The notes beneath the pieces are model-generated. The model searched no databases, was not told the DNA's origin, and saw only the letters and a list, made by a program, of their open reading frames with translations. A stretch of DNA of 64,000 bases from positions 275,495 to 339,494 of the forward strand of contig JBNARF010000002.1 in the NCBI GenBank assembly GCA_049719805.1. Direction: 5' to 3'. The stretch is from Candidatus Hydrothermia bacterium (GTDB lineage: Bacteria > Hydrothermota > Hydrothermia > UBA1063). The translations under genes were made by a program, and so were the position numbers. Shown piece after piece: positions 17,549 to 34,857 of this stretch (position 1 is the first letter of the stretch; the number at the start of each line of letters is the position of its first letter).

Positions 17549-18207
17549 AGAAGTTATTTGATGTTCTTTTCGAGCATTTTGGGCCTCAAAACTGGTGGCC
17601 CGGTGATTCACCCCTTGAAATAATTGTGGGAGCAGTTCTCATGCAGAATACTGCTTGGAAAAATGTTGAAAAAGCGATAACAAACTTGAAAGAAAAGGGT
17701 CTTTTAGATGTTGAAAAAATACTGGGGATTGAGGATTCTTACCTTGCTGAAATTATAAAACCCAGTGGGTTCTATAATCTTAAGGCGAAAAGGTTGAAAT
17801 CGGTGCTTAAGTTTGTAAAAAATAATCGCGGGATTGAGGTGATTTCAGGGAAAGAAAAACACGAATTACGAAGTGAGCTCCTTAAAATTCCGGGAGTGGG
17901 AAAAGAAACAGCGGATTCTATAATACTTTACGCTTTGGGTAAGCCTATTTTTGTAGTGGATGCTTATACCCGCAGGATCTTAAAGAGAATTGGTATAATA
18001 GATGACGAAAATATGAGCTACGACGAAATTCAAAAACTATTTCACGAAAACCTTCCTAATGATGAGAAACTTTTTAACGAGTTTCACGCGTTATTTGTGG
18101 CCCTCGGGAAAAAGTATTGTTTAAAGAGAAATCCGTTATGTAACCTCTGCCCTGTCAAAAGTTATTGTAAATATGGGAGGGAATTTAGTGGTTCGAACGG
18201 GAATTGA
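17530..18207 (+). CDS. HhH-GPD base-excision DNA glycosylase (endonuclease III-related) with [4Fe-4S] cluster loop
   Basis: 225 aa; VLMQNTAWKNVEKAI region, helix-hairpin-helix (LLKIPGVGKETADSIILYA), C-terminal C-x6-C-x2-C-x5-C (CLKRNPLCNLCPVKSYC). Confidence 0.7.
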   Translation: MQKGTIEKLFDVLFEHFGPQNWWPGDSPLEIIVGAVLMQNTAWKNVEKAITNLKEKGLLDVEKILGIEDSYLAEIIKPSGFYNLKAKRLKSVLKFVKNNRGIEVISGKEKHELRSELLKIPGVGKETADSIILYALGKPIFVVDAYTRRILKRIGIIDDENMSYDEIQKLFHENLPNDEKLFNEFHALFVALGKKYCLKRNPLCNLCPVKSYCKYGREFSGSNGN

Positions 18208-19360
18208 TAACATTAATAGATTTTGGCCAAAAGCGCTGAAAAGAGCTAGGATTGGCCTTCTGGCTCATTCCGCTTCGGTTAGCAGTAACTTGAAGTATTC
18301 ATGGGATGTATTGAGGGATGAAAACCTGGCAGAACTGGTGGCAATTTTTGGACCACAACATGGACTTTTTGGTGAGACCCAGGCCAATATGGTGGAGTGG
18401 GAAGGTTATAAGGATCCTGTTACAGGCTTGTACATTTACAGTCTTTACGGAAAAAACAGAAAGCCGACAAAGGAAATGCTTGAAGGAATTGATGGCATAG
18501 TTATTGATCTTCAAGATGTGGGTTCTCGCTACTATACCTACATATGGACCATGTACTTGGTTATGGAAGCTTGCCTTGAGAATAAGAAGTTTGTTGTGGT
18601 TCTTGATAGACCCAATCCAATTAGTGGCATTTCCGTTGAGGGGCCTGTCTTAAAGGAGGAATATTCTTCCTTTGTGGGTCTAAAACCCCTTCCTATAAGG
18701 CACGGAATGACCATAGGAGAAATAGCATTATACTTTAAAGAGACTTTTCTTAAAGATCTTGAACTTCATGTTATAAGAATGACGGGATGGAAGCGTGGCT
18801 TTTTCTGGTCAGATACAGGATTGGAATGGGTAAATCCTTCACCCAATATGCCTTCCGAGAAAACTGCTCTTCTATATCCCGGTATGTGCCTTCTTGAGGG
18901 CACTAATTTAAGTGAAGGAAGGGGCACTACAAGACCCTTCGAAATTTTTGGTGCACCTTTTATAGACCCCTTTAAACTTAGCGAAAAATTGAATTCCCTT
19001 AAATTAGATGGAGTTTTCTTTAGACCCCTTTACTTCATCCCGAGTTTTGACAAATTTAAAGGCGAGAGATGTGGTGGCATACAGATTCATATTCTGGATA
19101 AGAGAAAAATAAAACCCTTTAAGGTCGGAGTTGCAGTACTTATGACCGTTATGAGTATGTATCCTGAAGGTTTCAGTTGGTCTTCCGGTCCATATGAATA
19201 TGAGTTTGAAAAGAAACCGATAGACATTCTTGCGGGGACAAGTCGTTTAAGGGAAGCACTGGAAAGGGGAGAGCCTCTGAAAAAACTGGAAGAGTGGTGG
19301 AATCAAGAATCAAAGGAATTTGATGAGCGGGTAAGAAAAAAGTATCTTCTTTATGAGTGA
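18173..19360 (+). CDS. DUF1343-family protein (NamZ-like exo-beta-N-acetylmuramidase)
   Basis: 395 aa; DUF1343 signatures (GLLAHSASV, FGPQHG, DRPNP); start may be an internal Met since the ORF overlaps the upstream gene. Confidence 0.65.
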   Translation: MGGNLVVRTGIDNINRFWPKALKRARIGLLAHSASVSSNLKYSWDVLRDENLAELVAIFGPQHGLFGETQANMVEWEGYKDPVTGLYIYSLYGKNRKPTKEMLEGIDGIVIDLQDVGSRYYTYIWTMYLVMEACLENKKFVVVLDRPNPISGISVEGPVLKEEYSSFVGLKPLPIRHGMTIGEIALYFKETFLKDLELHVIRMTGWKRGFFWSDTGLEWVNPSPNMPSEKTALLYPGMCLLEGTNLSEGRGTTRPFEIFGAPFIDPFKLSEKLNSLKLDGVFFRPLYFIPSFDKFKGERCGGIQIHILDKRKIKPFKVGVAVLMTVMSMYPEGFSWSSGPYEYEFEKKPIDILAGTSRLREALERGEPLKKLEEWWNQESKEFDERVRKKYLLYE

Positions 19361-21230
19361 GCTATATATCCTTGTTTTATCCGCTGGATTCGGTGAACGC
19401 CTCAGACCTATTACTTACTCTATTCCCAAGGTTCTTTTACCTGTACTTGGCAAACCCCTCCTTATCAGGGTCCTTGATAATTTAAAAAAGTTTTTCCCGC
19501 GCTCAGAAGTTTACGTAAACTTGCACCATCTTGCTGAAAAAGTAAGCAGAAGTTTAAAGGAATTTTACCCTGAAGTTATTACCGTTTACGAGCCTCAGAT
19601 ATTAGGAACAGGTGGAGGAATTGTTAATGTTTCAAAAATCTCCCGTGGAGATAATATCCTGGTGCAAAATGGAGATATTCTAACATATTTTGATTTAAGA
19701 GGGTTTTATGAATACCATAAAAAGAATAATTTTGACATTACGCTGGCTATTAGCCAAAAAGTTTCTAAAAAAAATCTGCTGGTAAAAGGCACATTATTTC
19801 AGGGTATAAAGGAGGAAGGGCATACAGGATTTGCCGGCGTTGCTATTTATAACATGGAATTACTTCGGAACATGAGTCTGTATACTTTTGATGCTAAGGA
19901 AGTATGGGAATATTGCATAAGAAGAGGTGGACGTATTGGAGTATTTGACATTGGAGATTCCTTCTGGGTGGATGTGGGTACTCCACAAAGTTACGCCAGA
20001 TTGATACGAAATATATTGCAAAAATATGGCGAAAATGTTTTTATAAATACAACATCTTTGGATTTGCCAGTGGTGGAATTTGACGGCTTTTTCGTGATAG
20101 AAGGGGAACCTCGCCTTATTAAAGGGAGCAAATTCAGGAATGTCATTATTATCGGAGATCCTGAGGTAGAGTTCGGAATTTATGAAAACTGTCTGATTTC
20201 ACCTTCGGGTAAGACTACCTTTAGTGAGATAGAGGTTTTTGGTGGGGTGGGTAATGGGTATGAAACAGGATTTGGAGGATCTGACAGGAAGTTTATAAGG
20301 TTTTTCAAGGGCTCAGGGGAAAGATTAGTGGAATGCCATTTTGGTAATGATAGAGAAAGTTTAGAAAAACATTTAATGGCTTATAATTTACTTTTAAAAT
20401 GCGGCATCCCAGTGGCACGAATTTACAATGTGGATCATAAACGTAATGTTATTCAGATGGAAGATCTCGGAGATGTAACCCTTTATTCTTTTTTGAAGTA
20501 TCCGCCCAACAAAGTTTTTGAGAAAGAATTCTATTTTAAAGGTATTGATTATTTAGCAAGATTACATGCCTTGGGGGTTAAAGAGAAAGAATCGGAATAC
20601 TTTAGAAGGTGGCAATTTGATTACGAGTATTTTCTTTGGGAGCAAAACCATTTTTTCAACAATTTTTTGGAAAGAGTGTTGGGAGTTAAGGCAGGAAATA
20701 GTTTAAAGGAATGTTTGAGCAAAATTGCGGAGATTTCCGCGTCCTTTCCACGAGTTGTTCTGCACAGGGATTTTCAGAGTCAGAATTTAATGGTGGACAG
20801 GATGGGGGGTTTAAGAGTAATTGACTTTGTAGGAATGCGTTGGGGTCCTAAAACTTATGACCTTGTTTCTTTCCTGTTTGATCCCTACAGAGACATAGGA
20901 GAAGAACTAAGAGAGAGCTTAATCAGTTATTATATAGAGCGATATAAAGAGCTAAGTGGTAACAAACTAACTAGAGAAGAAATTGATAAGGAACTCCCTT
21001 ATATCAGGGTCCAAAGACTCCTTCAAGCTCTGGGTGCATACGGATATCTTTCCAGGGTGAAGGGTAAAACATTTTTTGAAAAGTTTTTCTTCCGAGGCGT
21101 GCAACTTCTCATTGATGTCCTAGCTCACAAAGCTTTGCGATGTAAAGAGTTAAATGAATTATTTCTGATTTTAAAAAATGCTTTTCTTGACACTAAGGAT
21201 AATATTGATTATAATATACCAATTGTTTGA
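19353..21230 (+). CDS. Bifunctional sugar-1-phosphate nucleotidyltransferase (MurU/LicC-like) / APH-fold kinase (AmgK/LicA-like)
   Basis: 625 aa; N-terminal NTP-transferase motifs (LVLSAGFGERLRP, GTGGG); C-terminal phosphotransferase Brenner motif (VVLHRDFQSQNLMV) and DFVGM metal-binding loop. Confidence 0.6.
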   Translation: MSELYILVLSAGFGERLRPITYSIPKVLLPVLGKPLLIRVLDNLKKFFPRSEVYVNLHHLAEKVSRSLKEFYPEVITVYEPQILGTGGGIVNVSKISRGDNILVQNGDILTYFDLRGFYEYHKKNNFDITLAISQKVSKKNLLVKGTLFQGIKEEGHTGFAGVAIYNMELLRNMSLYTFDAKEVWEYCIRRGGRIGVFDIGDSFWVDVGTPQSYARLIRNILQKYGENVFINTTSLDLPVVEFDGFFVIEGEPRLIKGSKFRNVIIIGDPEVEFGIYENCLISPSGKTTFSEIEVFGGVGNGYETGFGGSDRKFIRFFKGSGERLVECHFGNDRESLEKHLMAYNLLLKCGIPVARIYNVDHKRNVIQMEDLGDVTLYSFLKYPPNKVFEKEFYFKGIDYLARLHALGVKEKESEYFRRWQFDYEYFLWEQNHFFNNFLERVLGVKAGNSLKECLSKIAEISASFPRVVLHRDFQSQNLMVDRMGGLRVIDFVGMRWGPKTYDLVSFLFDPYRDIGEELRESLISYYIERYKELSGNKLTREEIDKELPYIRVQRLLQALGAYGYLSRVKGKTFFEKFFFRGVQLLIDVLAHKALRCKELNELFLILKNAFLDTKDNIDYNIPIV

Positions 21231-21250: not shown

Positions 21251-23050
21251 ATGTTTAAGACAAGTGGACCAGATTTCAAAAAAATTAAGCTCGAAGCCCA
21301 AAAGCTCATTGGGCAGGGTAAATATCAGGAAGCGTTAAATAAGTTAATAGAACTAAGCAAGCAGATCAGCGACCCAGAAGTTTACAATTCTATTGGCGAC
21401 CTCTATATCAGGTTCCAGAATAATGAGCAAGCCCTTCAATATCTCGAAAAAGCATACAAAATCTACAGAGAGCAGGATTTCAGAGAGATAGCTATTTCTG
21501 TGGCTAAGAAAATTCTTCGTATCGAAAAGGATAGGCATGATATTTACATTGATTTGGTTGAAATGGAAATGGAGAACGGTAATGTGGATAAAGCCCTTGA
21601 TTGGGCATTGGAGTTTGTAAAGCTACCTAACCCTGATCCTAGCTATGTGGGTAAGCTTTTTAGATTATTAAATGATATAGCTAATGAAATTCAGGAGAAT
21701 ACAGAACAGGCGACAAAATTCGAGAGACTCTTCATTAAATTGCAAGAGCTTGCGGAGCAGCTCTCTTTAGCTACCCTTGAGTCAGGAATTGAAATTGCGG
21801 ATGCAAAGGAATTTTTTGATAAAGGAGATTTTGAAGAATACGGTGGATTTTTTGATGCGGGTCACCCAGCTGAAGAAGCGAAGATTAAGAAAACCACCAG
21901 AAAGAAGGAAGAGCAAGAACCTGTTGAAAAGATAGAATTTTTTGAACAAGAAGAGGAAGAGAAAAGTTTTATAACTGCTTCTGGATTTTCCAATTTTCTT
22001 GAAGTGGAGAAATCTGATAATATTGAAAAAACCGTTCTGGAAGAGAAACCTACATCTTCTCATAAGTCAGAAGAAAGTGTGAAATTCGAGATTTCTGAGA
22101 AAACTGAGTTTGTAGAAGAAACTGAAGAAAAATTGGATTTGTTACCCCCTGAATCCAAGAGCGTCTCGGATAAGAGGCCGCCATCTGAGCAGTTTAAAAC
22201 AGTTTTAGAGGAAGAGCTTCCAGAGGAAATCGAGGCAGAACAAAAGGTATGGGAATCATTGACATCAAAAAAAATCACCGAACAGAAGCCGGTTCCTGAA
22301 GTAACAAGCAGTAAAGAATCTTCAGCTGAAGAGGAGGAACCTGAAAAACTCAGGGTGGCTTTTGACGAGTATGTGAAACTGAAAGAAGAGGAGAAAAAAG
22401 TCACTTTTGATGAGGTTGTAAGCGAGAAATTTAAGAGTGAATCAAAGGAAGAACCGAAACTGGAGCAAAAACCGACTGAGGGGGGAGTTCTCGAAAAAGT
22501 TGTAAAAGAGTCAACAACTGAGAAATTCTCCAAGGAGTTTAAGTCTTCCGTTTTTCAGGAAAAAGAAGCAGCACCCGCTGTAGTGCAGAAACCTAGAGAA
22601 TTTAGTGAAGCTATGTCAGATTTACTAAAGATTATAAGAGATTTCAAAGAAGATCTTGTTGGTTTAGAGACGTGGCCTTACTCTTCCGATTCTCCCTTTG
22701 AAGTTGCAAAAGAATATTACGAAATGAAGCTCTATCAGCCAGCAGTCGAAGAATTCCAGAAGCTTCTAGGAGACCCCAGATACAGGCTTCAATCAATGAC
22801 TTATTTAGGAAAGATATTCTATGAAAGGGGTGAGTTAGATTTTGCCGAGGCAATACTCAGGAAGGCTATCGAAGAAGCTGGATATATGGAGAAGGAATCC
22901 ATTGAGGCTTACTATTATCTTGCCCTAACCCTTGAGGCGCTTAAGCGTTTTATGGAAGCAAAAGAATTATATTTGAGGGTGTATATATTCGATTCAAGTT
23001 TTAGGGATGTTGCTGCAAAAGTAATGACATTAAGGAGTAAAGCACTATGA
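21251..23050 (+). CDS. Hypothetical protein: TPR-like helical termini flanking a long acidic/Lys-rich low-complexity region
   Basis: 599 aa; TPR-like N- and C-terminal segments, central ~300 aa rich in E/K/S/T; stop overlaps the next gene's start (ATGA). Confidence 0.45.
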   Translation: MFKTSGPDFKKIKLEAQKLIGQGKYQEALNKLIELSKQISDPEVYNSIGDLYIRFQNNEQALQYLEKAYKIYREQDFREIAISVAKKILRIEKDRHDIYIDLVEMEMENGNVDKALDWALEFVKLPNPDPSYVGKLFRLLNDIANEIQENTEQATKFERLFIKLQELAEQLSLATLESGIEIADAKEFFDKGDFEEYGGFFDAGHPAEEAKIKKTTRKKEEQEPVEKIEFFEQEEEEKSFITASGFSNFLEVEKSDNIEKTVLEEKPTSSHKSEESVKFEISEKTEFVEETEEKLDLLPPESKSVSDKRPPSEQFKTVLEEELPEEIEAEQKVWESLTSKKITEQKPVPEVTSSKESSAEEEEPEKLRVAFDEYVKLKEEEKKVTFDEVVSEKFKSESKEEPKLEQKPTEGGVLEKVVKESTTEKFSKEFKSSVFQEKEAAPAVVQKPREFSEAMSDLLKIIRDFKEDLVGLETWPYSSDSPFEVAKEYYEMKLYQPAVEEFQKLLGDPRYRLQSMTYLGKIFYERGELDFAEAILRKAIEEAGYMEKESIEAYYYLALTLEALKRFMEAKELYLRVYIFDSSFRDVAAKVMTLRSKAL

Positions 23051-24288
23051 TGAAGAAGGATTTAAAAGTTGAAGAAAAACCTCAAGGTAAGGTTACCTTC
23101 GTGGAGCTTCTTGAAAAGAGCGGCATCATTTCCAAAGAGGCCATTAAAGCTGCCCTTGCTGAGCAATGGGAGAGAGGGGGAACTTTAGAAGAGATTCTCG
23201 TTGAAAAGGGATACTTAAACGAGGAACAATTTGTTAAATTTATACTTGATAAATTTCCTATGCTACATTATGTGAGCTTGAAAGATATAGATATTGATAC
23301 TGAAGCTGTTGAACATATCCCAGCCAGAATTGCTAAGAAGTACTTACTGATCCCGGTTAGAAAGAAGGGGAAATCCTTAGCTGTGACCATGGCAAATCCC
23401 TTAAATAAAGAAATGCTCATCGAACTGAAAAACGTTACAGATTTGAAAATTAGACCATTTGTTTCAAAGATTTCGGAGATAAAGGAAGCCATTGCTAAGT
23501 ATTACGGAGAGATTGGAGAAGCAGAGGAAATTCCAGAACCTTTCACTGCAGATAAAGTTAAGAAAGAGATTGGAGTCCTGATAGCAAAGGATAAAACCTT
23601 TGAAAATTTCGTGGTCGGGGAAACTAATAAGCATGCCTATTTGCTTTGCGCAGATATTGCAAAAACTCGAGGAGTTGGAGAGAAGCGGCTTTTCATATGG
23701 GGGCCAGAAGGTACGGGGAAAACTCATCTTCTTCAAGCTATTGCGAACTACCTTTTAGAGAATGAAGCTCTAAGGAGATTCATATACATTGATGCTATAA
23801 AGTTTGTTACAACCCTGAAGGGTTTTAAGTCAGAGCGCGAGGTGGATCGGTATTTAAAAATTCTTACAGATCTTGATTTACTTCTCTTTGATGACTTAGA
23901 CTTTCTAATAGGTAAGGATTATGCTCAAGAGGCTTTATTTTCAGTGCTTTCTGAATTAAGAATGACCGATAAACAAGTGGTAATATCCTCATCATATCCG
24001 ATGAAGGATATGCCTACTTTGAGCGTAAAAGTAAAATCTTTAATTTCTGAATTCCTTGTAGTTGGAATGGATGAGCCCTCCGTGGAGCTTAAAAGGGACA
24101 TTGTAAAAAGATTTTTGCAGGAAGAATCACTTCCCTCTGGTGTAGTTGAGTTTCTTGTAAAGAAGCCTGGTTTAACAGTTAAAAAGATTGAATCTATTGT
24201 TCGCACATTGCTCACTTACAAGAGGATAGGAGAGAAAATTGATGAAAATCTTTTAAATAAGGTGGTTTCAGGGATTATTGAAAGTTAA
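23047..24288 (+). CDS. Fusion protein: N-terminal GspE-N (T2SSE_N/MshEN-like) domain + DnaA/Hda-like AAA+ ATPase domain, no DnaA domain IV
   Basis: 413 aa; residues ~15-155 match the GspE/PilB N-terminal domain pattern; residues ~180-400 match DnaA domain III: FVVGETNKHAY, Walker A WGPEGTGKTHLL, Walker B LLLFDDLDFL. Confidence 0.6.
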   Translation: MMKKDLKVEEKPQGKVTFVELLEKSGIISKEAIKAALAEQWERGGTLEEILVEKGYLNEEQFVKFILDKFPMLHYVSLKDIDIDTEAVEHIPARIAKKYLLIPVRKKGKSLAVTMANPLNKEMLIELKNVTDLKIRPFVSKISEIKEAIAKYYGEIGEAEEIPEPFTADKVKKEIGVLIAKDKTFENFVVGETNKHAYLLCADIAKTRGVGEKRLFIWGPEGTGKTHLLQAIANYLLENEALRRFIYIDAIKFVTTLKGFKSEREVDRYLKILTDLDLLLFDDLDFLIGKDYAQEALFSVLSELRMTDKQVVISSSYPMKDMPTLSVKVKSLISEFLVVGMDEPSVELKRDIVKRFLQEESLPSGVVEFLVKKPGLTVKKIESIVRTLLTYKRIGEKIDENLLNKVVSGIIES

Positions 24289-24302: not shown

Positions 24303-25922
24303 ATGGCTTTGTTAGGTCAACTGGGTTTGGGAGCTAAGGGCAAAACGAAAGGGAGCATAGTAGCCCTTGATATAGGTTCAAAATATGTAAAAGCTGCGTT
24401 ATTTGAGAGAAGGAAGAACGAGTTAGTGTTTAGGGGACTAGCTGTGGAAAAGGTCCCACCCGATGTGATCCTGGGTAAAGATATAATCGACCGGCAGGTT
24501 CTGGTAGATAAGATAAGGGATGCTTACTCCAAGCTTGGCACTGAAGTTAGAGATGTGGTGGTGAACGTAGCCGGTGGTGAGGTGAAAACTAAGGCCTTCG
24601 TTATACCTGACCTAAAGAAAAAAGAAAAGATAGCGGAGGCAGTGGACTGGAAGATAAAGGATGAGTTGCACGTGGATCCTACCGAGATAGTCAGGGATTA
24701 CGAACTTCTTGGAAAAAGCGAAGTGAGTGAGTCTCTGGATATGCTTGTGGGTACTGCCAAGTTGAGTGTGGTTTATGATATCATGGATATTGTGAGGGCT
24801 GCAAGACTTGAGCCTATAATGGTTACAACCGATCTCCTGGCCCTTTGGAGAGTTATTGAGGCCCTCGATTTAAAAGACCTTCCTGGAGATAACGTATTTT
24901 TCCATCTGGGTTACGAAGTGGGACTCCTAATTCATGTTAAAGATGGCAAGATCCAACAGATGATCGAAGTCCCAGCGGGTTTAAAATCATATGTGGATAA
25001 CTTATCCAGATTCTTTGACCTAAGAGTAGAAGAGGCCGAAGAAATTGTTATAAATGGCCCTACTTCCGGTATTGATAAAGTTTCTTTTGATGAGACTGTT
25101 GATTCGCTCCATGAGAGGTTTCTTTCGCCTGAAAAATATATACCTTTACTTGGTGAGCCAGGTGTTAAATTTAATTTATACATCTCTGGTGGTGGAAGTA
25201 AATTATACGGTGTAAGTGCTTTTGTTAAGAATAAGTATGGTGTCGATCTTAAATTCATAGATGTCTCAACCTTGTTTGCAGTTGAAGAACCTGTAAAGGG
25301 TATCAAAGATTATTTAAACTTACTAACTATAGTAATTGGTGATGCACTTCATTATTTCAGGAAAGGGCACAAGATAAACTTAATGCCTCAAGAAGCAGGG
25401 ATGGAAGCAGTAGCGGTTGAGGGTGAGGTTTCTTTATTACCTCATGTGGTGGGGGCACTCTCAATATGGCTTGTAATTGTCATTGTAATTGCTGTGCTGT
25501 CCATCGGAACCTCAAGGAGGATTTCAGGGCTTAAGAATCAAATAGCCAGGTTACAGGCTGAAGAGGTGGAACTTCAGAGAAAAGCTGACGAAATCAGGGG
25601 ATTTAAACAAGAAATTGAAGACGCCAGGCGAAAATTGGATCTTATTCAGCAGCTTCAAATGGGTAGAACGGTTTATGTAAGACTTCTCGATGAAATAAAC
25701 AGGGTTCTTCCCTCCGGGTGCTGGCTCGAGTCTGTAAGAAAAAGTGGTAGTTATCTTAATGTTTCTGGAGGAGCCCTTTCAAATATTAGAATATCTCAAT
25801 TTATGTCTAATCTCAAAAAGTCAGATGTAGTTGATTCTGTATACCTCCAGTCCATTGAAGTCTCTGGGGGTAGTCAACAAGAAAGATATGCAAGGTTTGA
25901 AATTAATGTTAAACTGAAATAA
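24303..25922 (+). CDS. pilM: Type IV pilus assembly protein PilM fused to PilN-like TM/coiled-coil/periplasmic region
   Basis: 539 aa; actin-like PilM N-terminus (IVALDIGSKYVKAA), then TM helix (ALSIWLVIVIVIAVLSIG), coiled coil and periplasmic domain as in PilN. Confidence 0.65.
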   Translation: MALLGQLGLGAKGKTKGSIVALDIGSKYVKAALFERRKNELVFRGLAVEKVPPDVILGKDIIDRQVLVDKIRDAYSKLGTEVRDVVVNVAGGEVKTKAFVIPDLKKKEKIAEAVDWKIKDELHVDPTEIVRDYELLGKSEVSESLDMLVGTAKLSVVYDIMDIVRAARLEPIMVTTDLLALWRVIEALDLKDLPGDNVFFHLGYEVGLLIHVKDGKIQQMIEVPAGLKSYVDNLSRFFDLRVEEAEEIVINGPTSGIDKVSFDETVDSLHERFLSPEKYIPLLGEPGVKFNLYISGGGSKLYGVSAFVKNKYGVDLKFIDVSTLFAVEEPVKGIKDYLNLLTIVIGDALHYFRKGHKINLMPQEAGMEAVAVEGEVSLLPHVVGALSIWLVIVIVIAVLSIGTSRRISGLKNQIARLQAEEVELQRKADEIRGFKQEIEDARRKLDLIQQLQMGRTVYVRLLDEINRVLPSGCWLESVRKSGSYLNVSGGALSNIRISQFMSNLKKSDVVDSVYLQSIEVSGGSQQERYARFEINVKLK

Positions 25923-26394: not shown

Positions 26395-26985
26395 ATGGAA
26401 AAATTAAAATCTCCGGCAGTAATATGGCTTTTAGGAGTAATTATATACGTATTGACCTTTATGTTCCTCTGGAATTCCATGTATGCCTCCAAATCCAGGG
26501 AACTCAAGACAGTAGAAGCAAAATATAAGGAGCAATACTCTAGAGTTCAGAATCTTCGTGAATTTGTAAAGGATTATGATAGAATAATAAGAGAAAAGGA
26601 CTCTTTGCTTGCCCTGTGGGAGGAGACTCAGAGGTTTTTGCCTCAGGAAGAAAATATGGACACATGGCTTTCTCAGATTACTGGTATGGCCATTAGTTCA
26701 GGGGTTCAAATATACAGTTTTAAGCCACAGTCACCCAGACAGCAGGAATTATATCGAGAGTATCCCATTGTGATGAAGGTAAGGGGTGGCTTCCATGAGC
26801 TTGGTACATTTATAAGCTTTATAGCCAACTCAGAGAGGATAATGAGTGTGGAGAATCTTCAACTACAACGTGTATCAGGACAAGAAATAGAGAGTGGACA
26901 AACGGTTGATGCTGAATTGACGGTTATATGTTATGTTTATAGTCCAGTGCAGGGGGCCGGAAAACCATCGGGAGGTTCACGATGA
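26395..26985 (+). CDS. pilO: Type IV pilus assembly protein PilO-like
   Basis: 196 aa; N-terminal TM helix, coiled coil, periplasmic domain; position between pilMN and pilP/pilQ. Confidence 0.55.
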   Translation: MEKLKSPAVIWLLGVIIYVLTFMFLWNSMYASKSRELKTVEAKYKEQYSRVQNLREFVKDYDRIIREKDSLLALWEETQRFLPQEENMDTWLSQITGMAISSGVQIYSFKPQSPRQQELYREYPIVMKVRGGFHELGTFISFIANSERIMSVENLQLQRVSGQEIESGQTVDAELTVICYVYSPVQGAGKPSGGSR

Positions 26986-27770
26986 GAAAAATTGTATTTT
27001 TTAATTTTTTATTTATTACATTATTGCTTAGCACTTTGCGAGCCCAGAATATGATAACTTCTTATTCTGTTCAAGAATCCGATGAAGGAGTTAGCATTAT
27101 TCTCGAGTTCTCTGAAGGGGTACCTCAGTATAGAGATTTTACCCTTGCAAATCCTCCCAGGATAGTGGTAGATTTGATTAACGTGGGGTATTCCTTAGGG
27201 GGAAAGCTTTTCGTAGTGGGAAAAGGTGGAGTGGAGCGAATAAGAGGAGCTCAGTACCAGAGAGAGCCGGAACTTGTTGCAAGAATTGTTCTTGATGTAG
27301 ATGAGTTTAGAAGCTACTCCATAGTAACATCGGAGAAATCCCTTATAATAAAAGTAGGTGGTATATCCAGCGTACCCTATTCCTCTTCTGCGCCAGGCGA
27401 AGCTGCTCCAGCACCTACCGAGAAAACCACTACAGTAAAAACTGAAGAAAAACAATACAAATTGGAAGTTGGGGAGAAGTACTTCTATTCTTCAAGGGGT
27501 AAAAAAGACCCCTTTAAGCCAGAAGCATTTGGTGAAGAGGAAGAACTTTTAAATGTTAGCGAGGCAAAACTCCTTGGGATTATAAAAAGCGATGAAGGAA
27601 ATGTAGCCCTTCTTCAGGATAGAAGGGGAGTAGGCTACGTTTTGAAAGAAGGAGACAGGGTCAGAAACGGTCGGGTAGTAAAGATTGAATCCGACCGTGT
27701 AGTTTTCGCTATTGTAGATTTTGGTTTTACAAGAAGGGTTGAATTAAAATTGGAGGAAGAAAATAAATAA
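26982..27770 (+). CDS. Secreted AMIN-domain protein with C-terminal PilP-like domain
   Basis: 262 aa; signal peptide; AMIN-like motifs (PPRIVVDLINV, ARIVLDVDE); Pro/Ala/Thr linker; C-terminal KDPFKP...LLGII...VKIESDRVVF resembles PilP. Confidence 0.5.
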   Translation: MRKIVFFNFLFITLLLSTLRAQNMITSYSVQESDEGVSIILEFSEGVPQYRDFTLANPPRIVVDLINVGYSLGGKLFVVGKGGVERIRGAQYQREPELVARIVLDVDEFRSYSIVTSEKSLIIKVGGISSVPYSSSAPGEAAPAPTEKTTTVKTEEKQYKLEVGEKYFYSSRGKKDPFKPEAFGEEEELLNVSEAKLLGIIKSDEGNVALLQDRRGVGYVLKEGDRVRNGRVVKIESDRVVFAIVDFGFTRRVELKLEEENK

Positions 27771-27784
27771 AAGGAGGTTTAGTA

Positions 27785-28969
27785 ATGGGGATTTTTAGAA
27801 AAGCGCTTCTTATCCTGCTTACGGTGAGTGTAATATCTGCTCAAGAAGCCCGAATCACCATGAGTGTAGAACAGGCAGATATAAAAACCGTATTGAGAGC
27901 CTTTGCAGAAGTTGGGAGAGTTAATATAATTACAACACCGTCCGTAACTCAGAAAGTTACTTTTAACATAAAAGATGTACCCTGGAGACTGGCTCTAAAA
28001 TCCTTGCTTGATGCCTATGGGCTTGCAATGATTGAAAGTGAGGGACTCATCACCATTATGACTCAACAGGAGTTTGCAAACTTAAAAACAGCAGCGGACC
28101 TGGATATTAAAGTACTTAAAGTACGTTATGCCGATGCCCGAAAAGTTGCAGAGGTCTTAAAGTCGCAGTTATCTCCAAGAGGAGATATTAAGTTGGATGA
28201 AAGCTCTAACGCCCTTATTGTCACGGATCTCAGAGTAAACCTGTACAGAGTGGAGGATCTCCTCACCCAGGTAGATAAGCCTTACCCCCAGGTTATGATA
28301 AAAGGAAGAATAGTGGAAGTGGACTACAATGAGTCAAGAAGGCTTGGGTCAGAGCTTAAAGCAATTAGGTTTGGAAATCCCGGTTTCGAAGCCTCACCCT
28401 ATACTGCTGGAGGACTTGAACCTGAAAACGCAACTTATTTAACGGTGAATTATCTCGGACCTAATGCTGCAAGAATTGAGGCAGCTATTGATGCTCTTGA
28501 GGGCAAATCAAAAGCCAATACCATTTCTGAGCCTAAAATCATGGTCCTTGACAATGAAAAGGCATCTATATATTCGAAGATAAGGGTGCCGGTTATTTCA
28601 AGGGATATGGCCGGAAATACTGTCGTTCAGTTTGAAGAAACCGGTATAAGCCTTGAAGTAACACCTCATATTATTCCAGATGGCAAAGTGGTTCTACACA
28701 TTAAAACAGAGACTGGGGACCTCACCGGATATTCTGCTGCTGGTCAACCAATAACCTCCAAGAGAGGAGCAGAGACGAAGGTTACAGTACCTGATGGAGA
28801 AACTGTATTAATTGGTGGTGTTATCATTGACAAGGATAAGAAAGCTAATTCAGGCCTTCCTTTGCTTTTGAGAATCCCCATTTTAGGCCAGATTTTTGGT
28901 CGTCATTCTGTAGAAAAAAGTAAGGCTGAGATTTTGATATTCTTAACACCCACTGTGGTGAGAGAATGA
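27785..28969 (+). CDS. pilQ: Type IV pilus secretin PilQ (minimal form)
   Basis: 394 aa; signal peptide, secretin N-domains, C-terminal secretin signature (GETVLIGGVI...PLLLRIPILGQIFG...ILIFLTPTVV). Confidence 0.85.
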   Translation: MGIFRKALLILLTVSVISAQEARITMSVEQADIKTVLRAFAEVGRVNIITTPSVTQKVTFNIKDVPWRLALKSLLDAYGLAMIESEGLITIMTQQEFANLKTAADLDIKVLKVRYADARKVAEVLKSQLSPRGDIKLDESSNALIVTDLRVNLYRVEDLLTQVDKPYPQVMIKGRIVEVDYNESRRLGSELKAIRFGNPGFEASPYTAGGLEPENATYLTVNYLGPNAARIEAAIDALEGKSKANTISEPKIMVLDNEKASIYSKIRVPVISRDMAGNTVVQFEETGISLEVTPHIIPDGKVVLHIKTETGDLTGYSAAGQPITSKRGAETKVTVPDGETVLIGGVIIDKDKKANSGLPLLLRIPILGQIFGRHSVEKSKAEILIFLTPTVVRE

Positions 28970-29526
28970 AAATAAGATTTTTCAATCACAAGAAGGGCCT
29001 CACATTAGTTGAGGTCCTTCTTGTGATTTTTATTATCAGTATCTTAGTAGCAATACCTTTCTGGGGGGGGACTCAATATATAGCCCGCAACAGGCTAAGA
29101 AGTGAAGCGGTTAAGATTAAATCCTTTACCGAAAACGAGAGAACCAATGCTATGGCCATGACCACAAGACGTGCCATAGAGTTCAATGGGTGGGATGTAA
29201 CAATTTACGTGGAAGATCTATCGCGCCCTTTGCCTAATCTGGATTCTATTGTTGCCACTTACCCCAATTACTTTAGCTCTAAAATAAATTTCGGCGGGCT
29301 TCCGGGTGCGACGGCTCTAAGGGGAGGTTCCATTGACTCCGATGGTGTAATGTTTGGGAGTTCTCAGAATAATAACAGGTTGGTCTTCACAGCCTTTGGA
29401 CTTGTTGAGAATCCCGGAGAGCTATATATAAATGATGGACGAAATCTAATGTGTATCGCTGTTAACGGATTTGGACAAGTTAGAATATATAGATGGACAG
29501 GGGGAAGCTGGAATGAAGTTAAATAA
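28966..29526 (+). CDS. Prepilin-type minor pilin/pseudopilin (FimU/GspH-like)
   Basis: 186 aa; class III signal peptide KKG/LTLVEVLLVIFIISILVAI with Glu at +5. Confidence 0.65.
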   Translation: MKIRFFNHKKGLTLVEVLLVIFIISILVAIPFWGGTQYIARNRLRSEAVKIKSFTENERTNAMAMTTRRAIEFNGWDVTIYVEDLSRPLPNLDSIVATYPNYFSSKINFGGLPGATALRGGSIDSDGVMFGSSQNNNRLVFTAFGLVENPGELYINDGRNLMCIAVNGFGQVRIYRWTGGSWNEVK

Positions 29527-29935
29527 AAAAGGTTTTTCTCTTATTGAGCTTCTCGTGGCTCTTTCTATACTGGCTATTGGACTCCTCGGTATAATTCCCC
29601 TTGCTATCACCACTATACGCCTCAATACCTATCAGAATCAAATGCTTAATGCTAAGTATTTAGCAGAGAGGCAGGCGGAATTTTTAAGAAGTATTACGTT
29701 TACTGCACCTGAACTCGCAAATGATAACGACAACAATGACCTATACGATACCGCAAACCCTGACCACATTCTTGCTACAACCATTGAAGGGATCACATAT
29801 AATGTGATGTGGAACATTGTGGATGATTCTGCCGGGACTAGAACTATTAATATAATAGTTCAGTGGGTTACGCCACGAACTGGAGAAACAAAAAACTATA
29901 ATATTACCCTCGTAAGGAGTAGCTATGAAATTTAG
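29513..29935 (+). CDS. Prepilin-type minor pilin (PilV-like)
   Basis: Prepilin motif KKG/FSLIELLVALSILAIGLLG; chosen start ATG 29513 (MKLNKKGF...), ORF track starts at 29471; overlaps upstream gene by 14 nt. Confidence 0.65.
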   Translation: MKLNKKGFSLIELLVALSILAIGLLGIIPLAITTIRLNTYQNQMLNAKYLAERQAEFLRSITFTAPELANDNDNNDLYDTANPDHILATTIEGITYNVMWNIVDDSAGTRTINIIVQWVTPRTGETKNYNITLVRSSYEI

Positions 29936-30827
29936 AAGAGCTATAACACTCTTGGAACTTATTGTGGCTTTGGGCATATTATCTGTGCTTCTTACTAGTG
30001 TTTTTATAGTATATAGAAATCAAATGAGGACAGCCACCACTCAGCAAAGTATTTCCGTTCTCCAGACTGATATTCAGCAGGCTTTTAACATTCAAAAGTG
30101 GGATATGCTGATGAGCGGGTATGGTGTTAGTGCAAATGTTGCTCCCATATGGAGCATAAATAAGACAAATGCCCCTGATTCTTTAATATTACGGAGCACG
30201 GGTTTTCTTATTGGTGGTACCACCCGCTGGAGTTACGTTATGGATGCAATGACGGGGACTGAACTTATCGTTGGGCGCTGGAATGACGAAAGGGAAGATA
30301 TTCATGTTGGTGACGTGATTGTAATAATGACTGATAGAAAGGGTCAGATAGCTCCACCTGTTTCTGTCACAGCTCGCGAGGCGATGACTTATAACAATCA
30401 GGATGCGTACAGGCTGACCTTAAGTGGGAATGTTCAAACGGCTCAGGGTAACTTTGTCTTTGTGGTTCCTGGAGGTCAATTTCAAACTGTAGTTTATTGG
30501 GTTAGAAATGACACGCTGTTTCGGGGGAATGAGCCCTTTTTAACGGGAGTTGAAGATTTTCAGGTATCTCACTGGGTGGACTTAAATGGCAATGGGATAG
30601 AGGATGTGGGGGAGAGGGTTATGAATCCTTCTGGTGTAAGTAATTTTACGGGTTTCTTAAGGTCTACAAGGGTTAGTCTTGTGCTTTTAGGTCCTGTGGA
30701 TAGAGATTATACATTCCCTGATAATCAAATTACTGTGGAAGATCATACCTATACAATTACCGGGTCTGCGAGGAATAGAAGGCGCAGGTTTTATACCATA
30801 GAAGTAAAAGCGAGGAATATAAGATGA
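29925..30827 (+). CDS. Prepilin-type minor pilin (PilW-like), atypical Ala at -1
   Basis: 300 aa; N-terminus MKFRRA/ITLLELIVALGILSVLL with Glu at +5 but Ala instead of Gly before the cleavage site. Confidence 0.55.
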   Translation: MKFRRAITLLELIVALGILSVLLTSVFIVYRNQMRTATTQQSISVLQTDIQQAFNIQKWDMLMSGYGVSANVAPIWSINKTNAPDSLILRSTGFLIGGTTRWSYVMDAMTGTELIVGRWNDEREDIHVGDVIVIMTDRKGQIAPPVSVTAREAMTYNNQDAYRLTLSGNVQTAQGNFVFVVPGGQFQTVVYWVRNDTLFRGNEPFLTGVEDFQVSHWVDLNGNGIEDVGERVMNPSGVSNFTGFLRSTRVSLVLLGPVDRDYTFPDNQITVEDHTYTITGSARNRRRRFYTIEVKARNIR

Positions 30828-31273
30828 AAAAAGGAGTTGCTTTAATAACGGTGATTCTCGTAGTTGCGTTTCTTGTGGTTTTAGGTGGAATAACAGCCTA
30901 CATGGTCCAGAGAAGTTTGAGAATTACCGGGACCTTCAGAAGGGCTCTATCCACCTTTGAGGCTGCGGAAGGTGGTATTGAGATAGGTGTGAATGAGATA
31001 TGGTCTGCTTCAGAAGAAGGAAGATCACTGGGAACGATAACGAGGAACGTAGGACAAAGGTCAGTAACTGTAACACCATCTCGTCTTTTTGTGATGACGG
31101 AAAGGGGTGGCTCATTAGAGTTTGCTGCGGCATACGAAGGTGTTGGAAGGGGAGTAGGAGGGGGTGGTGCTGCAATATTTTATAGAATCTTATCTTTATC
31201 CCGCGGTGGACCTGAAGATAGGGTGGAACTTGAAGTTTTATATAGGAAAGTTGTAGGTATAATAGCACAATAA
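30824..31273 (+). CDS. PilX-like minor pilin / pilus assembly protein
   Basis: 149 aa; N-terminal hydrophobic helix (GVALITVILVVAFLVVLGGITAY) lacking Glu5, as in PilX. Confidence 0.5.
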   Translation: MKKGVALITVILVVAFLVVLGGITAYMVQRSLRITGTFRRALSTFEAAEGGIEIGVNEIWSASEEGRSLGTITRNVGQRSVTVTPSRLFVMTERGGSLEFAAAYEGVGRGVGGGGAAIFYRILSLSRGGPEDRVELEVLYRKVVGIIAQ

Positions 31274-31284
31274 AAGGAAAAGGG

Positions 31285-34200
31285 GTGATAATTATGTTTA
31301 AAAAAAGGTGGTTATTTGGTACATTAATGATTATAGTGGGGGCACTCATGGCTCAAACCACTGAGATGCCCTGCAACGTTCCGCCGTTTTTGGCGGAGAA
31401 AATTCCGCCGAATATCTTAGTTATTATGGACAATTCTGGTTCTATGGGTGAAATGGCATATAATGAGCCTTATAACCCTAACAAAAAATACTATGGCTAT
31501 TTTAATCCCGATGCAGTTTATCGTTATGACAACAATGAATGGGTTCCTGTAGATCAAAGTGCAAACTTTAATACCACCTGGCCTGGAAACCTCTTGAACT
31601 GGGCAATTATGTCACGTTTCAGTGTTTTAAAGAAAGTTCTTGTGGGTGGAAAGGCAACGGCACGAAGCCCCAGGGGATTTGCCCACACCCTGATTTGTGA
31701 GTCACGCAATTCCTGGGATAAATATTACACATATGGCGGAAGTAAATACCGTTTTACCGTTTCCGGTGGAAGTGCTGGATCTGCGAGTAGTATAGTAATA
31801 AGGAGATGGACAGGAAGGAATTGGGTGCAACTGCTTTCTGCAACTAATAAAGTTGCAATCGACTCAACCTTCTCCCGAGGTGTTATTCAGAAGCTTGGTG
31901 ATAAGGATATAGATGGCAGATGGGATGATGACACTCCGAGATTCTGGCTAATAATGTTTAATAGCAGAGGGAATAACAGTGAAATGGGGTCAGGTAGTAC
32001 AACCCCAGTAAATGTCAGCGGGGAACACGATGGCGGTCGTGTGGAGTCTTATTATCAGGATAACAATTCAATGAGTGATTTTGTTAATGCCATTCAGAAT
32101 GCCAAAGCAGAGACCTGGACCCCCCTCGCTGAATGTTTACTTGAGACATGCTGGTATTTTAGACAAGTTCCCACACCTCTTTTCTTCCCTAATGACTACG
32201 GGACGGACCGGCAATGGGATCCTATGGAGCCTAAGAGTGTATGGTGCCGAAAGTCTTTTGTGCTCTTTTTGACCGACGGCCAGGCAACGAGAGATAGAGA
32301 TCCCGTTTTGCATCAGCATATAGGTGATTACGATGGTGACGGAATGGAACCATCGTTTTATCAGGGTGTAGATGATCCACAGTTCAGCAGCCATTACCTT
32401 GATGATGTAGCCTTTTGGATGCATACCAACGATCTGAGACCTGATATCCCGGGGACCCAGAACCTCACCCTTTATGGTGTCTTTGTTTTTGGATATGGGC
32501 ACGATCTTTTAAAAGAAGCCTGTAAAGATGGCGGATTCATCGATTACAATGGTAACAATAGACCTGACCTTACGAGAGAGTGGGATCATAATGAAGACGG
32601 AGTTCCCGATACATATTTCGAGGCACAGGAGGGAGAGCAGATCGAAAAGGCTATTATGGATGCGATACTCTCTATTTTAGCGAGGGTAAGTTCAGCTACG
32701 GCTGCATCTGTGGTCACTCAGACCCAGAGAGGTGAAGGAACTATATATCAGGCCTTTTTCCAGCCCACTTACACTACGCCTCTGGGCGAGATAAAATGGC
32801 TTGGACAATTGGTGGGCTACTTTGTTGATAAAAATGGAAATATTAGAGAAGATAGCAATAATGATTTAAGACTCACTAGTGATGACCGTATTTTGAAATT
32901 TAAGACTGAAGGAATTGAAACCAGAGTTGAGAGATGGGCTGCCACTTCTGATGATAATCCCCTTTACAAGGTTGATGAAGTAGACCTCTGGGATGTTAAT
33001 TTCCTCTGGGATGCTGGCAAAAGATTACTGGAAAGAAGCGCTGACGAGCGGATTATAAAAGCAATAATTAAACAGAATAACACATTTGCTCTCATAGATT
33101 TCAAAACCAATAACAGGAGCCTTCTCAGCTCTTACATGGAAGGTTCTGATGCCTTCAAGGACTCTTTAATAAATTACATTAGAGGTGTTGATTATAATAA
33201 TCCCAGCTGGCGATCCAGGACATTTGAGCCGAATAAGGTCTGGAAACTTGGTGATATAGTCTACTCTACGCCGACTTTTGTTGGAAGACCGACGGAAAGG
33301 TATGATCTCATATATGATGATGTATCTTACAGGGAATTTTACAACCGGAAGAAGAACAGGCGAAACATAGTCCTTGTTGGCGCCAACGATGGAATGCTCC
33401 ATGCGTTTAATGCCGGTATTTTTGATACACTTGAAAGAAGGGTAGATGGAATGGGTAGGAGTTTGGGTGAAGAATTGTGGGCAGTTATTCCTATGAACCT
33501 CCTTCCCCATTTGAAATGGCTGAAGGATCAGCAATATTGCCATGTTTACTATGTTGACCTTAAACCAAAAGTTACAGACGTAAAGATATTTAGTGATGAT
33601 GAGGATCATCCTGAAGGCTGGGGTACTGTCGCCATCGTAGGAATGAGATTTGGAGGAACTCCAATATCCATATCCAGTGGCACGTATAGGTCTGCTTTCT
33701 TTGCTCTTGACATTTCTAACCCAGATAATCCCCGGGTGTTGTGGGAGTTTACAGATCCCAATCTTGGTTATACTATTTCCTATCCCTCTGTTTTGAAAGT
33801 TGTGGATCAGAACGGTGAAAAGTGGTTCGTTGTTTTTGGTTCTGGAACCACAACTACCCCCACAGGACACACTTCCAATCAAAATGCTTATTTCTATATC
33901 CTTGATCTTAAGACGGGAGCCCTTTTAAGAAAGATACAGATACCATATCCTTCAAATCAGACGCAAGGTGCGTTTTGTGGTAATCCCATCTCCGTGGACG
34001 TTAAGCTGGATTACAGTTGTGATATAATCTATTTACCTGTTACATATATTGAAAGATCAGGTAATACAAATATAGAAAAGGGTGCTCTTTACAGGATAGT
34101 AACTGGCAATAGTACAAATCCGCAAGCCTGGTCCCTCTCCATGGCGATAAGACTAGATAGGCCAGTAACCTCAGGGACTGCCGCTTCCATGGACGAATAT

Positions 34201-34857
34201 GGTAATTTATGGGTATTCTTTGGGAGCGGGAAGTACTTTACAGACCAGGATGAGATTGATTCAAGGACCAATTATCTTCTAGGATTTAAGGATCAGTACT
34301 GGAATGGTGGTTGGACAAGTGCTACCTCTCCAAGCTATGCCCTTTCAGATCTTCTCAATGCAACTAATATTAATGTAAGAGTTGACACTTCCACTGGCAG
34401 TGCCACTGTTGAAAACGTACAAGGCCTTCCAAATAATTTATCTTTCGAAGCCTTTGTGGATTCTGTTAATAGAAGATATAAGGGGTGGTATGTGGAGCTC
34501 CAGAGTGGTGAAAAGTCCCTTAATTTCCCATTAGTTCTTGGCGGTGCTGTATTTTTCACCACCTATAAGGTTATTGATGACCCTTGTGCTTTTGGTGGTC
34601 AGGGATGGCTCTATGTACTCTATTACAAGACTGGAACAGCATCTAAAAATGCGCCCCTGGGTTTACTACAGAACAATTACGCTGCCACCAAGGTTGAAGT
34701 ACAGGGTATGCCTGCTTCTCCTGCAGTTCACATAGGATCAAGGGATGAGGCAAGGGCGGTGGTTCAGACCTCAACTGGCGAGATTATTTCCATGCCCGTG
34801 GAACTTCCCTGGAGTCCGAAGAGCGGTGCAAGGGTCTGGAGACCCGCAAACTTTTAA
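31285..34857 (+). CDS. PilY1/PilC-like pilus tip adhesin with N-terminal vWA (MIDAS) domain
   Basis: 1190 aa; signal peptide; MIDAS motif VIMDNSGSM near the N-terminus; large C-terminal region consistent with a PilY1 beta-propeller; follows four minor pilin genes. Confidence 0.65.
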   Translation: MIIMFKKRWLFGTLMIIVGALMAQTTEMPCNVPPFLAEKIPPNILVIMDNSGSMGEMAYNEPYNPNKKYYGYFNPDAVYRYDNNEWVPVDQSANFNTTWPGNLLNWAIMSRFSVLKKVLVGGKATARSPRGFAHTLICESRNSWDKYYTYGGSKYRFTVSGGSAGSASSIVIRRWTGRNWVQLLSATNKVAIDSTFSRGVIQKLGDKDIDGRWDDDTPRFWLIMFNSRGNNSEMGSGSTTPVNVSGEHDGGRVESYYQDNNSMSDFVNAIQNAKAETWTPLAECLLETCWYFRQVPTPLFFPNDYGTDRQWDPMEPKSVWCRKSFVLFLTDGQATRDRDPVLHQHIGDYDGDGMEPSFYQGVDDPQFSSHYLDDVAFWMHTNDLRPDIPGTQNLTLYGVFVFGYGHDLLKEACKDGGFIDYNGNNRPDLTREWDHNEDGVPDTYFEAQEGEQIEKAIMDAILSILARVSSATAASVVTQTQRGEGTIYQAFFQPTYTTPLGEIKWLGQLVGYFVDKNGNIREDSNNDLRLTSDDRILKFKTEGIETRVERWAATSDDNPLYKVDEVDLWDVNFLWDAGKRLLERSADERIIKAIIKQNNTFALIDFKTNNRSLLSSYMEGSDAFKDSLINYIRGVDYNNPSWRSRTFEPNKVWKLGDIVYSTPTFVGRPTERYDLIYDDVSYREFYNRKKNRRNIVLVGANDGMLHAFNAGIFDTLERRVDGMGRSLGEELWAVIPMNLLPHLKWLKDQQYCHVYYVDLKPKVTDVKIFSDDEDHPEGWGTVAIVGMRFGGTPISISSGTYRSAFFALDISNPDNPRVLWEFTDPNLGYTISYPSVLKVVDQNGEKWFVVFGSGTTTTPTGHTSNQNAYFYILDLKTGALLRKIQIPYPSNQTQGAFCGNPISVDVKLDYSCDIIYLPVTYIERSGNTNIEKGALYRIVTGNSTNPQAWSLSMAIRLDRPVTSGTAASMDEYGNLWVFFGSGKYFTDQDEIDSRTNYLLGFKDQYWNGGWTSATSPSYALSDLLNATNINVRVDTSTGSATVENVQGLPNNLSFEAFVDSVNRRYKGWYVELQSGEKSLNFPLVLGGAVFFTTYKVIDDPCAFGGQGWLYVLYYKTGTASKNAPLGLLQNNYAATKVEVQGMPASPAVHIGSRDEARAVVQTSTGEIISMPVELPWSPKSGARVWRPANF

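Follow-up and report, generated by a model that had tools for sequence, protein, structure and literature searches.

Does the gene at positions 24303 to 25922 of a 64,000-nucleotide stretch of Candidatus Hydrothermia bacterium DNA (contig JBNARF010000002.1, forward-strand positions 275,495 to 339,494; the whole stretch is called the window below) really encode the pilus proteins PilM and PilN as one polypeptide, and what has the join done to the peptide contact between them? Very probably, the product of this gene, pilMN, is real and serves as a subunit in which PilM and PilN share one chain, within the inner-membrane alignment/assembly subcomplex of the type IVa pilus machine of a diderm WOR-3/Hydrothermota bacterium. 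This reading builds on which domains were observed and in what order they lie, on how well both the fusion and the motif at its junction are conserved, and on the operon context.

One reading frame for PilM and PilN

The list of open reading frames of the window gave a single forward-strand frame at 24303..25922, starting with ATG, with zero internal stops and a product of 539 amino acids (aa). An NCBI record 100% identical to the product is entitled [quoted passage not shown]. Both Pfam domains passed their cut-offs: PilM_2 (PF11104) over aa 22-251 with 65.0 bits (cut-off 27), and PilN (PF05137) over aa 460-538 with 66.1 bits (cut-off 22.8), the latter covering its profile from position 1 to 78 of 78. 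The proposal of the first-pass annotation, that PilM and PilN form a single fused polypeptide whose C-terminal half would match PilN profiles, is borne out on both counts, and the three peptides it quoted were located in the translation (IVALDIGSKYVKAALFE at aa 19-35, ALSIWLVIVIVIAVLSIG at aa 385-402, and LKNQIARLQ...RRKLDL at aa 410-447). Sequence searches of the PDB matched Myxococcus xanthus PilM (3jc8_Ma) to aa 15-320 (E 4e-18) and M. xanthus PilN (3jc8_Na) to aa 413-504 (E 4.9e-6); the N-terminal half also matched PilM of Thermus thermophilus (2ych) and of Pseudomonas aeruginosa. Nucleotide-binding-type motifs were found at aa 23-26 (DIGS) and aa 295-298 (SGGG), and both are invariant among the relatives (D23, G25, S26 and G296-298).

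The full chain was modeled with AlphaFold2 (AF2) as a monomer from an alignment of only 10 close sequences, giving an overall predicted local distance difference test score (pLDDT) of 73. The model has an actin-like domain (19-354), a low-confidence linker (358-382), a long helix (379-467) and a beta-beta-alpha-beta-beta domain (473-538), the elements of the last (E473-481, E484-491, H494-505, E510-521, E529-538) having pLDDT > 80. Profiles and model thus agree on the order that had been described for the chain: actin-like PilM, transmembrane helix, coiled coil, periplasmic PilN. A separate AF2 model of the PilM part (aa 1-377) reached pLDDT 80.5 and a predicted template-modeling (TM) score of 0.80. 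When compared with the PDB using Foldseek, the leading structural match was 5eou, a PilM:PilN1-12 structure (TM 0.78, E 4.6e-24), with 3jc8_Ma and 2ych leading alongside it (TM 0.78-0.79) and FtsA at about 0.6. The N-terminal half is therefore predicted to have the PilM fold, and is closest in the model to the solved PilM structures. The core of the PilN half probably resembles the published PilN/PilO fold.

The source is a metagenome-assembled genome, and canonical pilM and pilN genes lie only a few bases apart, so that a single sequencing or assembly error that erased the pilM stop or shifted the frame could have joined two genes that are truly separate. Against such an artefact, nine more 90%-identity clusters, drawn from NCBI, JGI, Logan and ENA assemblies, hold proteins of 535-548 aa that are 69-94% identical and carry both Pfam domains. 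Two JGI metagenome contigs (L001 and L002; 95 and 276 kb) carry an intact 548-aa homologue within a fully syntenic locus; a 42%-identical cluster, with a length of 539 aa, gathers 16 members from many samples under the names WOR-3, Hydrothermae or Hydrothermota; and in five species-representative WOR-3/Hydrothermota genomes the match forms one contiguous stretch. Fused homologues of WOR-3/Hydrothermota span 531-548 aa overall, with identity down to 42%. The recurrence of the same fused length in at least 10 clusters from independent sources, in the two JGI contigs, in the 42% cluster and in the five genomes argues against an error, as do the invariant residues K354, N359, L360, P362 and E364, which would be unexpected if the linker were read-through of a noncoding spacer. 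We give the artefact practically no probability; the frameshift for which the first-pass annotation had wished to see a check is excluded by these fused frames in independent assemblies, and the fusion is conserved across WOR-3/Hydrothermota.

The junction and the retained INLMP motif

We examined where the PilM part ends and the PilN part begins. The last PilM helix ends at aa 354 and is separated by three residues, G355-K357, from the sequence INLMP, which corresponds to the PilM-binding motif of PilN; the junction in the window protein reads ...GDALHYFRKG-HK-INLMP-QE. An exhaustive HMMER search with the product returned 4111 homologues at E <= 1e-3, and the best 150 representatives at 50% identity were examined. 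In this search, the stand-alone PilN matches (about 180-210 aa) align their residue 3-4 with query residues 357-358. Three of the 38 PilN-sized matches were fragments of PilM; the other 35 are genuine PilN proteins, and 29 of them start M-x-[RK]-[IV]NLLP, which puts the motif at residue 4. The distance from INLMP to the transmembrane helix is 25 residues in PilMN; the corresponding distance is 13-26 residues for PilN proteins that stand alone and 15-27 for the other fused ones. By these alignments, the join is placed at the native N-terminus of PilN. The window junction sequence, ...GDALHYFRKGHKINLMP, was compared with a split Desulfobacterales operon (L009), in which pilM ends ...GLAIRSTNI followed by its stop, a spacer of 17 nucleotides follows, and pilN starts MIQINLLPVRQ; loss of such a stop codon with in-frame read-through of the spacer would produce the layout of PilMN, and is most likely how the fusion arose.

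Is the motif still needed once the two proteins share a chain? In the linker region, K354, N359, L360, P362 and E364 do not vary among the close relatives. An alignment of 26 divergent fused proteins (19-42% identity to the query) left only M1, D23, G203, G296, L360 and G489 as invariant columns, and N359 and P362 were at least 90% conserved in it. Outside the close family, 29-30 of 53 fused representatives had a motif of the form [IVL]N[LFIM][LMIVF]P lying 15-27 residues before the transmembrane helix, the count being 29 or 30 depending upon the position window used. The INLLP-type docking motif is evidently still under strong selection in fused chains, to judge from these alignments. Since INLMP is conserved across divergent fused proteins, the fusion would not have made the peptide contact between PilM and PilN redundant; it is best read as adding a tether to that contact without replacing it. 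The claim of the first-pass annotation that a covalent fusion fixes the PilM-PilN interaction therefore stands in part: the tether is real, whereas the peptide contact is evidently not replaced by it, and INLMP is kept.

A start codon within the junction could yield free PilN beside the fused form, for example at M361 or M367, and an AG-rich stretch (AGGAAAGGG, 25359-25367) does lie upstream of the ATG at 25383 that encodes M361. However, most relatives have Leu or Ile in place of M361, and M367 varies too, leaving no conserved internal start; initiation at M361 would remove the INL of the motif, and the distance from the AG-rich stretch to the ATG, about 15 nucleotides, is long for a ribosome-binding site. 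We consider an internal start extremely unlikely.

With only three residues between the last PilM helix and INLMP, and no confident docking in cis in the AlphaFold monomer models, INLMP may be unable to reach the groove of its own PilM domain and may bind that of a neighboring protomer instead. PDB sequence searches with a 58-aa junction peptide and with a 45-aa PilN N-terminus, aimed at placing the PilN peptide within the 5EOU chimera, returned no matches. With INLMP bound to the neighbor, the cytoplasmic ring would be a covalently tethered, domain-swapped daisy chain; separately, the gene upstream of pilMN could encode a new pilus factor responsive to cyclic di-GMP (c-di-GMP). We hold this whole proposal, binding to the neighbor included, to be rather unlikely. 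If the daisy chain were true, fused PilMN proteins would be natural constructs with which to fix and count the stoichiometry of the PilM ring, and would help in asking whether the switch between extension and retraction needs release of PilN by PilM.

Occurrence of the fusion and the pilus gene string

Of the best 150 representatives, 54 were at least 480 aa long and nearly all of these aligned over both halves; subtracting the cluster of the close family (P0003) leaves at least 53 fused clusters at 50% identity outside it, one of them from a Bradymonadia metagenome-assembled genome. The ranking favors fused proteins, which match both halves of the query, and the count accordingly shows abundance and not frequency. 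A scan of genomes with a closer alignment found only the fused genes of WOR-3/Hydrothermota and two Desulfobacterota loci (L008 and L009); inspection of L009 showed the split pilM and pilN described above and ruled it out as a fused locus. A profile search made with the 10-sequence alignment in a word-indexed protein database yielded nothing beyond those 10 proteins. In a nearest-neighbor test of the PilM domains, the closest sequence to a fused protein was fused in 38 cases and unfused in 12, and the closest to an unfused protein was fused in 17 and unfused in 39; this test is crude, being made at 20-25% identity on a best-150 sample biased to fused matches. It suggests that fused and split forms are partly interspersed, which is compatible with repeated fusion or fission, and we make no firm claim. 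Fused PilMN is an ordinary variant, known from many other bacteria and described before. The arrangement is not unusual: it occurs in dozens of unrelated clusters at 50% identity and in the PilMN of Clostridioides difficile, and GspL has an equivalent layout.

The features of pilMN and of the genes around it are collected in Table 1. The locus is a type IVa pilus set of a diderm organism, and the same set of minor pilins and PilY1 is present in the two JGI contigs.

Table 1. Coordinates within the window of the pilMN gene, its parts and the neighboring genes of the pilus string.
Feature	Position	Strand	Basis or remark
pilMN, fused PilM-PilN	24303..25922	+	One 539-aa open reading frame; Pfam PilM_2 and PilN
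PilM actin-like (FtsA-like) cytoplasmic domain, aa 16-354	24348..25364	+	TIGR01175, PDB PilM matches, AF2, Foldseek
INLMP motif, aa 358-362; PilM-binding motif of PilN made internal	25374..25388	+	DNA read; alignment to stand-alone PilN
Single transmembrane helix, aa 383-401	25449..25505	+	Hydropathy maximum 2.93 at aa 383; inside AF2 helix 379-467
Periplasmic coiled-coil helix, aa 402-467	25506..25703	+	AF2 continuous helix 379-467; weak DivIC/FtsL-type matches
PilN periplasmic alpha/beta core, aa 460-538	25680..25916	+	Full-length Pfam PilN, AF2, 3jc8_Na
Tetratricopeptide repeat (TPR) protein	21251-23050	+	599 aa
MshEN (c-di-GMP-binding) and DnaA-type AAA+ protein	23047-24288	+	Pfam, NCBIfam, conserved synteny; ends 14 nucleotides before pilMN
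Predicted lipoprotein, 149 aa	25936..26385	+	Between pilMN and pilO; without known family
pilO, expected periplasmic partner of the PilN half	26395..26985	+	Pfam PilO, 88 bits
AMIN with weak PilP-like C-terminus (PilP position)	26982..27770	+	AMIN 38.9 bits; PilP E 0.011, under cut-off
pilQ secretin, short, 394 aa	27785..28969	+	Pfam Secretin 150.8 bits, and Secretin_N
Four pilin-like genes (N_methyl), including PilW-like and PilX_N-like	28966-31273	+	Pfam
PilY1	31285-34857	+	Pfam T4P_PilY1

This context bears on two other readings of the gene: that its product belongs to a type II secretion system (T2SS), as a component of GspL type, or that it acts in division as an FtsA-like protein whose coiled coil resembles DivIC/FtsL. 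GspL shares the layout of actin-like domain, transmembrane helix and periplasmic ferredoxin-like domain; weak DivIC and FtsL matches fell over the transmembrane helix and coiled coil (E 0.012-0.023); FtsA structures were secondary fold matches; and the neighboring PilO weakly matched T2SSM_b and GspM. However, searches of Pfam and NCBIfam gave no GspL/T2SSL profile at E <= 0.1, whereas PilM_2 and PilN pass their cut-offs, and PilM structures ranked above FtsA in Foldseek. The secretin scored 253 bits with PilQ (TIGR02515; cut-off 284.35) versus 207 with GspD (cut-off 351.35), both being under the curated cut-offs. Around pilMN lie PilO, the AMIN/PilP-like protein, a secretin of PilQ type, the PilW-like and PilX_N-like pilins and PilY1, not the gene context of a T2SS (GspC/E/F/M, pseudopilins GspG-K); the two kinds of pilin and PilY1 are markers of the type IVa pilus. 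The INLLP motif is a hallmark of PilN. GspL is not known to have this motif or the complete actin fold. A secretion or division protein is very unlikely, and the one-chain PilM-PilN subunit of a pilus remains the reading adopted here.

Four observations weigh against that reading. The NCBIfam pilM model TIGR01175 aligned to aa 16-327 with 82.4 bits, which is under its strict curated cut-off of 133. Residues 358-382 had pLDDT < 50 in the full-length AF2 monomer, and residues 358-377 likewise in the aa 1-377 model; coming from monomers and a shallow 10-sequence alignment, this counts as weak evidence. PilB, PilC, PilT and PilD were not found among the ten other large open reading frames tested in the window, and would therefore have to lie elsewhere in the genome. 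Lastly, H201 (24903-24905) is invariant where T. thermophilus PilM has its phosphate-2 Asp (DIGAE), and nucleotide binding and handling in PilMN may differ from that of T. thermophilus PilM. Both the close relatives and the 42%-identity WOR-3/Hydrothermota cluster read HLGYE or HMGYE at this position, and M. xanthus PilM has Asn there.

The gene that ends just before pilMN, rather than pilMN itself, is the most unusual feature of the locus. Its 413-aa product joins an MshEN domain (aa 74-156 by Pfam; 42.7 bits with the NCBIfam model of the c-di-GMP motif, over the cut-off of 38) to a DnaA-type AAA+ domain III, and is without both the N-terminal domain of DnaA and the DNA-binding domain IV. The gene overlaps that of the TPR protein by 4 nucleotides. 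This architecture was found in about 35 clusters, of which those named by source are all from WOR-3/Hydrothermota, down to 42% identity, and beyond these the matches were to ordinary DnaA. The gene adjoins pilMN wherever the context is visible, i.e., in the two JGI contigs and in a Hydrothermota metagenome-assembled genome (DRQ03_02850, DRQ03_02855). A literature search for MshEN combined with DnaA found nothing relevant. The protein may be a c-di-GMP-responsive pilus assembly factor.

Several neighbors have features of their own. The TPR gene starts the pilus gene string; its product has TPR at both ends with a long, highly charged Glu/Lys-rich low-complexity middle, and relatives keep a 581-aa counterpart. 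The predicted lipoprotein, whose signal peptide ends LSSC, has a 148-aa counterpart in the 69%-identity relatives on the two JGI contigs; Pfam and NCBIfam searches gave no family for it. In the protein at the PilP position, AMIN occupies aa 31-124 and the weak PilP-like match aa 191-241, with the same arrangement in the JGI contigs. The PilQ protein here, as in those contigs, has no domains beyond N0, Secretin_N and Secretin, whereas the AMIN domain of Pseudomonas and Myxococcus lies on the secretin. Ahead of the string, at 18173-21230 on the forward strand, lie a gene for a NamZ exo-beta-N-acetylmuramidase and then one for a 625-aa fusion of a nucleotidyltransferase with an APH-type kinase, both also present in the JGI contigs; the fusion presumably resembles MurU and AmgK in one chain, as a module of cell-wall sugar recycling.

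Working model and comparison with known systems

PilM forms a cytoplasmic ring that touches the extension and retraction ATPases and the platform protein. By analogy, the PilM domain of PilMN would remain in the cytoplasm within such a ring, and the chain would pass via the retained INLMP, one transmembrane helix and the coiled coil into the alpha/beta core of PilN. The PilN core would pair with PilO, whose gene lies two places downstream, and would be linked to the PilQ secretin by way of the AMIN-PilP-like protein. The fusion would enforce 1:1 stoichiometry and permanent proximity of the two domains, with docking of the motif in the groove probably still used.

By itself the PilMN finding matters little. 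With it, WOR-3/Hydrothermota, a diderm candidate-phylum lineage, joins the organisms with a one-chain PilM-PilN, and the retention of the motif after fusion supports the peptide-groove contact as structurally or allosterically important, beyond being a mere anchor. Fused PilMN proteins could serve as single-chain targets for structures of the inner-membrane platform of the pilus.

A fusion of PilM with PilN has been reported for the primary type IV pilus cluster of C. difficile, by Pelicic 2019 (PMC6916266), citing Melville & Craig 2013 and counting the fusion as support for a PilM-PilN interaction. By its description, the C. difficile PilMN is alike in being one polypeptide followed by pilO. 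It differs in that C. difficile is a monoderm, without PilP or PilQ, whereas the Hydrothermota PilMN belongs to a diderm secretin operon and has the diderm-type INLLP motif; in monoderms the contact between PilM and PilN uses a different motif (Pelicic 2019, PMC6916266).

Systems with separate PilM and PilN (T. thermophilus 2YCH, P. aeruginosa 5EOX, M. xanthus 3JC8) have the same domains, fold, INLLP motif and spacing to the transmembrane helix, and share the downstream order pilO-pilP-pilQ with the pilMN locus. Binding of the PilN N-terminus by PilM is documented for T. thermophilus and P. aeruginosa. In these three systems two polypeptides are joined only by the PilN peptide lying in the PilM groove, whereas here there is one chain. 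The engineered P. aeruginosa PilM:PilN(1-12) that was crystallized as 5EOU is a covalent construct of PilM with a PilN peptide, as PilMN is, but it is artificial and soluble and has 12 PilN residues only.

The protein Amuc_1101 of Akkermansia is named PilM in the literature, and its family model NF045709 (“PilM-like pilus complex protein”) is a PilM-type model of 608 positions. Residues 292-479 of PilMN align to positions 288-472 of this model (E 2.6e-18), over the end of PilM, the transmembrane helix and the coiled coil; with 66 bits against a cut-off of 650, PilMN is not a member of the family. Lastly, the PilM-PilN complex is the equivalent of GspL in the T2SS (PMC4471445; PMC3724824), and in GspL, too, a single chain unites a cytoplasmic domain like PilM, one transmembrane helix and a periplasmic domain like PilN, the last pairing with GspM as PilN does with PilO (PMC4471445; PMC3724824).

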